The notes beneath the pieces were generated by a model. It was given only the letters and a program-made list of their open reading frames with translations, had not been told where the DNA came from and did not search any database. This document shows positions 21,208-21,601 of a stretch of 64,000 nt of DNA, piece by piece. How positions within the stretch are numbered: position 1 is the stretch's first letter; each line of letters begins with the position of its first letter. The translations under genes and the position numbers were made by a program. The stretch is from an uncultured delta proteobacterium (lineage in GTDB: Bacteria > Myxococcota > Myxococcia > Myxococcales > Anaeromyxobacteraceae): contig CAVYBH010000012.1 of NCBI GenBank assembly GCA_963766715.1, positions 640,001-704,000 of the forward strand, read 5' to 3'.

Positions 21208-21601
21208 ATGAAGAAGCTTCTCCTCCTGCTGTCCCTCGCCCTGCTCCCGGTCTCGGCGAAGGCGAGCGAGCCGCTTCCAGACGGCCACGATGGACCAGGT
21301 CTCGGCGTGGATCACCGCCCGGGACGCGATCGTCTACGACGTGAACCCGGACGAGGTGTACGAGAAGAACCACCTGCCGGGCGCCAGGTTCCTCACCGGC
21401 AAGGCCTGGACGAGCACCCTGCCGGAGGCGAAGGCGGCGCGCCTGGTCTTCTACTGCTCGAACCCCAAGTGAATGGCCAGCCACTCGGCCGCCCGTGAGG
21501 CGGCCAAGCTCGGATACACGAACGTGTGGGTGATGCCGGACGGCATCCAGGGCTGGCTCAAGGCCGGCAAGCCCATCGAGTCGGGCGCCCCGCGCGGCTA
21601 G
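21208..21601 (+). CDS. Exported rhodanese-like protein, probable selenoprotein (in-frame TGA 21470-21472; frameshift near 21275)
   Basis: Signal peptide [19 protein letters not shown]; rhodanese motifs VYDVN...[17 protein letters not shown][TGA][36 protein letters not shown] continue in frame through the TGA. Confidence 0.8.
21473..21508 (+). promoter_or_regulatory. Putative bacterial SECIS element
   Basis: Hairpin GGCCGCC-CGTGA-GGCGGCC (21487-21505); loop starts 21 nt after the UGA, with G in the second loop position. Confidence 0.6.

Follow-up and report, generated by a model that had tools for sequence, protein, structure and literature searches.

A predicted exported, single-domain rhodanese-like selenoprotein encoded across an in-frame TGA in an Anaeromyxobacteraceae genome

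The window analyzed here is a stretch of 64,000 nucleotides (72% GC) from contig CAVYBH010000012.1 of the assembly GCA_963766715.1, which represents an uncultured member of the Anaeromyxobacteraceae. Between moaA and thiC it carries a short gene (Table 1) whose main reading frame opens at 21290, meets a TGA and then runs through 42 sense codons to a TAG at 21599-21601. With the TGA written as selenocysteine (Sec, U), the surrounding loop reads YCSNPK-U-MASH. An earlier note on this DNA, made from the letters alone, had proposed that the codons beyond the TGA complete a rhodanese fold, and this is borne out: the readthrough product scores 48.7 bits against Pfam PF00581 (cut-off 22.2), and its AlphaFold model, in which a helix spanning residues 63-73 begins immediately after the Sec, matched 6MXV, BH2092 (3NHV), GlpE (1GMX) and Sud (1QXN) in Foldseek. 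Both Cys83 and His92 are invariant in our alignment A2. A promoter and terminator scan of the locus gave no match on the + strand.

Table 1. Features of the rhodanese-like gene, in window coordinates
Feature	Position	Strand	Basis and remarks
GGAGG ribosome-binding site	21196..21200	+	sequence; 7 nt ahead of ATG 21208
Predicted 130-aa precursor (~111 aa mature) with a single Sec rhodanese domain	21208..21601	+	Pfam PF00581, E 1e-12; AlphaFold pLDDT 93
Predicted Sec-pathway signal peptide, 19 aa	21208..21264	+	basic-hydrophobic-AxA pattern, no lipobox Cys; judged by eye
Extra assembly base	21273..21274	+	shifts the signal peptide out of frame; absent from relatives' contigs; frameshift census
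Codon of Cys83, canonical rhodanese catalytic position	21455..21457	+	aligns with the catalytic-loop Cys of YgaP and BH2092
In-frame TGA, predicted Sec88, motif C-x4-U-x2-S-H	21470..21472	+	conserved TGA; Cys in homologues
Bacterial SECIS-type element	21477..21512	+	lower stem 21477-21481/21508-21512; upper stem 21487-21493/21499-21505; loop CGUGA 21494-21498
Codons of Ser91-His92	21479..21484	+	position 91 is Ser or Cys throughout the clade

The N-terminal stretch that starts at the ATG sits one base out of frame with the rhodanese domain. By eye it has a typical signal-peptide pattern, as the earlier note had proposed, N-termini of the same pattern are found in relatives, and 21 of 23 residues of this region are identical to those of P0003, a database protein (97% identical) in which the N-terminus and the domain are joined in one frame. 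The precursor is likely to be exported via this signal peptide. Among contigs assembled from other sequencing runs, which belong to close relatives (best share of words with the window, 0.39), the base at 21273/21274 is missing from all four DNA runs compared and from one of four RNA runs (X1, X2, X3, X8 and X18). The single +1 error that the earlier note had needed to join the two parts is thus most likely an assembly error, as judged from these contigs. At the TGA itself, no alternative letter was seen at 21470-21472 among the matches listed for the relatives' DNA and RNA contigs.

Frequent single-base insertions seem to be a property of this assembly. The gene for an HD-GYP response regulator (19024-20129), moaA (20135-21135) and thiC (21615-23007) are all frameshifted here and whole in relatives, being intact for example at locus L051, where they account for 3 of the 11 long neighboring genes compared; contigs of other runs also omit one base near 21020 and one at 22159. 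Apart from its one likely assembly error, and despite the apparent internal stop, the gene itself is likely intact. A 397-nt contig from RNA run X17 spans 21277-21597; it stems from another strain and may be DNA, and hence was not counted as evidence of expression.

Searching 92 Anaeromyxobacteraceae genomes gave 46 matches with E < 1e-20, and the codon at the site could be read in 44 of these (two matches in genome G088 were left out). In line with a check that the earlier note had named, 43 of the 44 carry TGA, across 42 genomes, and one carries TGC. The lone TGC belongs to a second copy in genome G045 (L075), which holds both a Sec and a Cys copy. Orthologues with 64-83% identity occur in named records that bear the titles Anaeromyxobacter, Anaeromyxobacteraceae or Deltaproteobacteria. 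Within the genus the distribution is patchy, a close copy being present in only 6 of 14 genomes. The 42 codons 3' of the TGA are conserved among the relatives. The earlier note's statement that related rhodaneses carry CxxxxC also held, with Cys in the TGA column in 119 (first pattern) or 120 (second pattern) of the full-length homologues that make up the best 120 of 2738 profile matches. Truncation by standard gene callers, likewise foreseen, was found throughout: all 39 database relatives retrieved with a single query terminate exactly at C-x4-stop, and the members of their clusters among the matches listed are 60-103 aa long, none of them full length.

The same-site TGA is also found in other families of the phylum and in another phylum. 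Outside the family but within the phylum, 14 of 38 loci have the TGA, and selA was present in all 14 of those genomes; seven genomes with no selA match all carry the Cys form at loci outside the family. These outside-family loci were picked by score and the genomes are related, so that the co-occurrence of selA and TGA does not amount to a statistical test. Genome G561, which is unpublished, contributes to none of the counts given. Cys copies are also present in many selA-positive genomes, and selenium is therefore not essential to the function of the family. Some unusual arrangements were seen along the way. In genome G257, Sec and Cys copies stand in tandem (L091/L189), L098 (G122) is a multi-domain rhodanese with two Sec sites, and L043 and L045-L047, from records titled Enterobacteriaceae or Pseudomonadota (titles that may be wrong), are Cys homologues that branch with the clade.

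A SECIS-like hairpin of 7 bp had been reported 3' of the TGA, and its coordinates are confirmed; a lower stem, absent from that first description, lies outside it. The bSECIS criteria, as given in the available part of PMC13188914, are a loop of 3-9 nt, an upper stem of 4-16 bp, a G in the first two loop positions, a spacing of 16-37 nt and an MFE of at most -7.5. The hairpin here has a 5-nt loop with G in second position, 7 bp, a spacing of 21 nt from the TGA and a folding energy of -16.4 kcal/mol. Taken alone, this is weak proof of recoding: the z-scores range from -0.62 to -2.68, and among 2000 synonymous recodings of the same peptide 949 fit a loose bSECIS model, while the 7/7 stem survives in 244 and the stem together with the CGT codon in 11. 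The weight rests instead on the comparative test. Over 30 Sec loci (29 distinct), 96.3% of the cells of the two-helix structure are paired and three pairs show compensatory changes; the pairing or covariation value was reached in none of 500 shuffles and the pair count in 21 of 500, while controls with slid partners were 22-43% paired. Four of the seven upper-stem pairs are invariant and hence uninformative on covariation. The SECIS model fits 48 of 50 Sec loci versus 10 of 35 Cys loci, and at least 6 of the 7 stem pairs are kept in 46 of 50 versus 3 of 35, so that the hairpin is mostly lost where the site encodes Cys. At the loop, 32 of 50 Sec loci have the rare Arg codon CGT, which makes up 12 of the 271 Arg codons in ten genes of the window. 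The comparative data thus argue strongly for a SECIS element at this site.

The machinery for Sec insertion, whose presence had been named as a check, is encoded in the genome in full: selA, selB, the tRNA-Sec gene selC and selD, the last with a TGA of its own. A frame break interrupts selA here, and the gene is in one frame in five of five relatives. The TGA is almost certainly decoded as selenocysteine, in which case SelB would act at the adjacent SECIS hairpin. The alternative is that translation really ends at the TGA, or that this codon results from a sequencing error, the locus being a pseudogene or an artefact of an error-prone assembly. Such a view can point to the many indels, to the breaks in moaA, thiC, the HD-GYP regulator and selA, and to the additional base in the gene itself. 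It would have to account, however, for a TGA that recurs at this position in 42 family genomes, in other families and in another phylum, for the conserved downstream codons, for the covarying SECIS and for the unbroken selA in all five relatives. We consider this reading largely refuted and extremely improbable.

Several other observations concern selenium in this group. In many family members (L191-L198; in the window genome, G000, at C15:349417-350803), selA is split into two profile pieces by an in-frame insert near position 160; the frame break in the window genome comes on top of this insert. Further Sec candidates in the window genome are a peroxiredoxin/BCP-like protein with T-x-x-U (C8, 444359, - strand), SelD (C9, 54807-55979, - strand) and a formate dehydrogenase alpha subunit (C17, 59267-62482, + strand). 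A TGA at 315804 of C8 (- strand) marks another candidate hidden selenoprotein, an exported thioredoxin-like U-x-x-C protein with a long helical C-terminal part, which is a possible periplasmic redox partner. Near-identical pairs of dehydrogenase and PLP-enzyme genes lie on C6 near 4332 and on C10 near 105186, possibly marking a duplicated or strain-mixed stretch.

The gene is an accessory one in a housekeeping region. Across 41 family loci it lies in a housekeeping block, with moaA immediately preceding it on the same strand in 15 and thiC within two genes in 24; moaA also stays with the gene in a rearranged locus (L071). Elsewhere in the family the upstream position is taken by a hydroxymethylglutaryl-CoA lyase-like gene, a HAD hydrolase or other genes. 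Pathways for the molybdenum cofactor, thiamine and lipoate are cytoplasmic. These neighbors, together with the ten molybdopterin-domain matches in the genome, could be taken to mean that the protein supplies sulfur for one of these cofactors or serves a respiratory molybdoenzyme, the latter being the link that the earlier note had suggested. Neither role is well supported. The protein looks exported, while the cofactor pathways are not; of the 24 loci with thiC nearby, 22 have it in convergent orientation; no moaA was called directly upstream in the remaining 26 of 41; and contigs of DNA runs X1 and X2 join the end of moaA to the end of thiC without the gene. A Pfam scan took in 72 neighbor proteins, namely 13 family representatives and 59 of the 129 proteins called near loci outside the family, and revealed no molybdoenzyme among the 59. 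A role in cofactor supply or molybdoenzyme service is accordingly improbable in our judgment. Over the 41 family loci and the 72 scanned neighbors, no recurring partner emerged beyond local synteny, such as an OPT transporter/GNAT block in one family and pdxA at some Cys loci.

Rhodaneses bind sulfane sulfur in persulfide form on their catalytic Cys. A sulfur/selenium transferase or redox activity, as proposed in the earlier note, is plausible for the window protein. The reading that we favor, to which we would give about an even chance, is that the protein is a periplasmic single-domain rhodanese that would handle sulfane sulfur (persulfide or polysulfide) through a Cys-Sec pair. Cys83, at the canonical position, would be loaded with the sulfur to form a persulfide, as happens in Sud and PspE. 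The attack on this persulfide would then come from Sec88, which lies five residues further along, where the active-site helix begins; it would free the sulfur or hand it on and leave a Cys-Sec selenylsulfide, which a periplasmic chain of the thioredoxin/DsbD type could re-reduce. Such a scheme is consistent with TsoB, in which a related domain is fused to a DsbD-like part, and a DsbD/CcdA-type membrane domain is encoded in the window genome, the candidate partners being only co-resident there. Against the scheme, the neighborhoods show no consistent partner or substrate.

The same selenoprotein could instead work as a periplasmic thiol/disulfide or peroxide oxidoreductase, in which Sec88 would be the attacking residue of a thioredoxin-like U-x-x-S or U-x-x-C motif at the helix start and Cys83 or Cys91 the resolving one. 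UxxC and UxxS motifs mark redox selenoproteins in the available text of PMC1976440, the modeled helix directly behind the Sec would suit this arrangement, and the residue at +3 alternates between Ser and Cys in both Sec and Cys proteins: U-x-x-S-H is found in 40 and U-x-x-C-H in 16 of 64 Sec domains, and C-x-x-S-H in 68 and C-x-x-C-H in 28 of 120 Cys homologues. However, it is the canonical Cys that is invariant; at +3, Ser predominates and Ala occurs at times (in 11 of the 120). The fold is that of a rhodanese rather than a thioredoxin, and we regard an oxidoreductase as clearly less probable than a sulfur-handling protein. Less probable again, and in our view unlikely, is a periplasmic protein that binds or reduces a metal or metalloid, with Cys83, Sec88, Ser/Cys91 and His92 forming a soft-metal site (Cu, Hg, As) or one like that of arsenate reductase. 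Arsenate reductases with the rhodanese fold do exist, and the cluster of Cys, Sec, Ser/Cys and His, with the His invariant in A2, would fit such a site. But metal-resistance genes do not recur among the scanned neighbors, the His is replaced by Pro, Gln and other residues in related Sec forms, and the HCx5R motif of Cdc25 and Acr2 is absent.

Two more far-reaching ideas can be mentioned. In one, for which we hold little expectation, the single-domain clade would be, rather than a plain sulfurtransferase, a rhodanese fold turned into a three-center redox relay (Cys83, Sec88 and Cys/Ser91 with His92) that acts as a periplasmic persulfide/polysulfide reductase fed by a DsbD/thioredoxin chain. In the other, the exported U-x-x-C-H members would mimic the CxxCH motif of heme c and could carry a selenium-linked heme. 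U/C-x-A-C-H, formally a CxxCH motif, occurs in many members among L078-L080, L082, L151-L165 and P0041-P0160 (16 of the 64 Sec domains and 28 of the 120 Cys homologues). Heme binding is nevertheless unlikely because Ser is the commoner residue at that position, and a selenium-linked heme is very improbable indeed.

The locus does not represent a new kind of system; it holds a real but under-annotated gene for a single-domain selenoprotein, and C-x4-U loops in larger proteins have been catalogued since 2005 according to the available part of PMC13188914. Its recognition corrects a systematic annotation error, given that every one of the 39 database relatives is cut at the TGA and that the clade lacks an NCBIfam model. 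The protein also provides a small, single-domain test case for the role of the C-x4-U loop, since it occurs naturally in Sec and Cys versions and with Ser/Cys variants. Should the relay idea prove true, it would mean new selenoenzyme chemistry in myxobacterial relatives from soil and sediment.

As to known systems, the closest solved structure with a C-x4-C loop is BH2092 (PDB 3NHV/3O3W), which aligns without gaps (Foldseek TM 0.81); it has Cys only and is a structural-genomics entry whose title names no function. The window loop is one residue longer than that of YgaP and two longer than that of 6MXV, so that thiosulfate-type sulfur transfer is not assured. PspE of E. coli and Sud of Wolinella (PDB 1QXN) are exported single rhodanese domains with a matching fold (TM 0.74 for Sud, E 6e-5 for PspE), but they presumably have no second Cys or Sec five residues further on; identity to Sud is 14%, and the GlpE model gives 22 bits against a cut-off of 102. 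PspE serves as a precedent for a periplasmic single-domain rhodanese in the available text of PMC2593051.

Among rhodanese-like selenoproteins, five forms are tabulated in the available part of PMC13188914. The best NCBIfam match of the window protein is TsoB (NF045694, a rhodanese/DsbD fusion-like protein tabulated as form 5, UxxxxU), with E 1.9e-12 over profile positions 93-159 of 572. The two share the five-residue spacing of two chalcogen residues, but the score of 46.1 bits is far under the cut-off of 805, the window protein is a single domain with no DsbD-like part, and it has one Sec (CxxxxU) rather than two; membership in TsoB was rejected. Forms 2, 3 and 4 (UxxG; CxU, which is NF041203, rhodanese_LYCAU), as tabulated, likewise place a Sec in the active-site loop of a rhodanese fold. 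The Sec occupies the first loop position in form 2 and lies two residues past the Cys in form 3, compared with C-x4-U here, and assignment to NF041203 was also rejected (36 bits against a cut-off of 115, and a motif that is not CxU). Overall, no NCBIfam model was matched above its cut-off.

Literature searching turned up no paper devoted to the single-domain clade, although Haft & Tolstoy 2025, Zhang & Gladyshev 2005 and Deng et al. 2026 may include it, and no biochemical study of form 1 or of C-x4-C/U loop chemistry. The nine rhodanese-like entries of deep-Sep file 1 in the supplement of PMC12013277, as available, include no ASH- or ACH-type sequence, and the 2006 list of 11 selenoproteins of Anaeromyxobacter dehalogenans, in the accessible part of PMC1794560, names no rhodanese. 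In a quick tree of 130 rows and 105 columns, rooted at the midpoint and with Sec coded as Cys, the window protein falls in a separate branch of 88 rows with an SH-aLRT of 99. The tree requires 16 changes between Sec and Cys, at least 7 of them forced by strong branches, and no order of events is claimed. More distant, second single-domain Sec paralogues of the same family with C-x4-U-T-L-S (L087-L089, from G037, G005 and G006) adjoin genes for 2-oxoacid:ferredoxin oxidoreductase and branch with the multi-domain group.

The nearest known relative is form 1 (UxxS; WP_010941598.1), which PMC13188914 attributes, in its available part, to Zhang & Gladyshev 2005. As printed in supplement file 3 of PMC12013277, WP_010941598.1 is a multi-domain protein of 423 aa with the loop FYC-x4-U-x2-S. 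By eye, the window protein shares with this printed sequence the FYC-x4-U-x2-S loop, the same helix and GY motif after it, and a signal-peptide-like N-terminus, and L116 (452 aa), which has a form-1-like architecture, gives a Sec-on-Sec alignment with the window protein (37% identity, E 4e-17). C-x4-U as a new Sec site was therefore rejected; the printed form 1 sequence has it, as do 8 of the 30 top loci in the phylum to which genome G092 belongs. The earlier note was right to see a Sec-containing rhodanese and gave too much weight to the find, the C-x4-U arrangement being already catalogued as form 1. The exemplar has an extra N-terminal domain and several rhodanese repeats, whereas the window protein has one domain, and the residue after the Ser/Cys is Pro in the printed exemplar and His in the window clade; the multi-domain build is a feature of the exemplar rather than a published criterion. 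By motif, the window protein belongs with form 1 and is predicted to work like it. What appears to be new is a single-domain, predicted exported U-x-A-[S/C]-H clade without an NCBIfam model, set apart from WP_010941598.1 by eye, and the window protein is best described, from its sequence, as a single-domain offshoot of the form 1 rhodanese-like selenoproteins.
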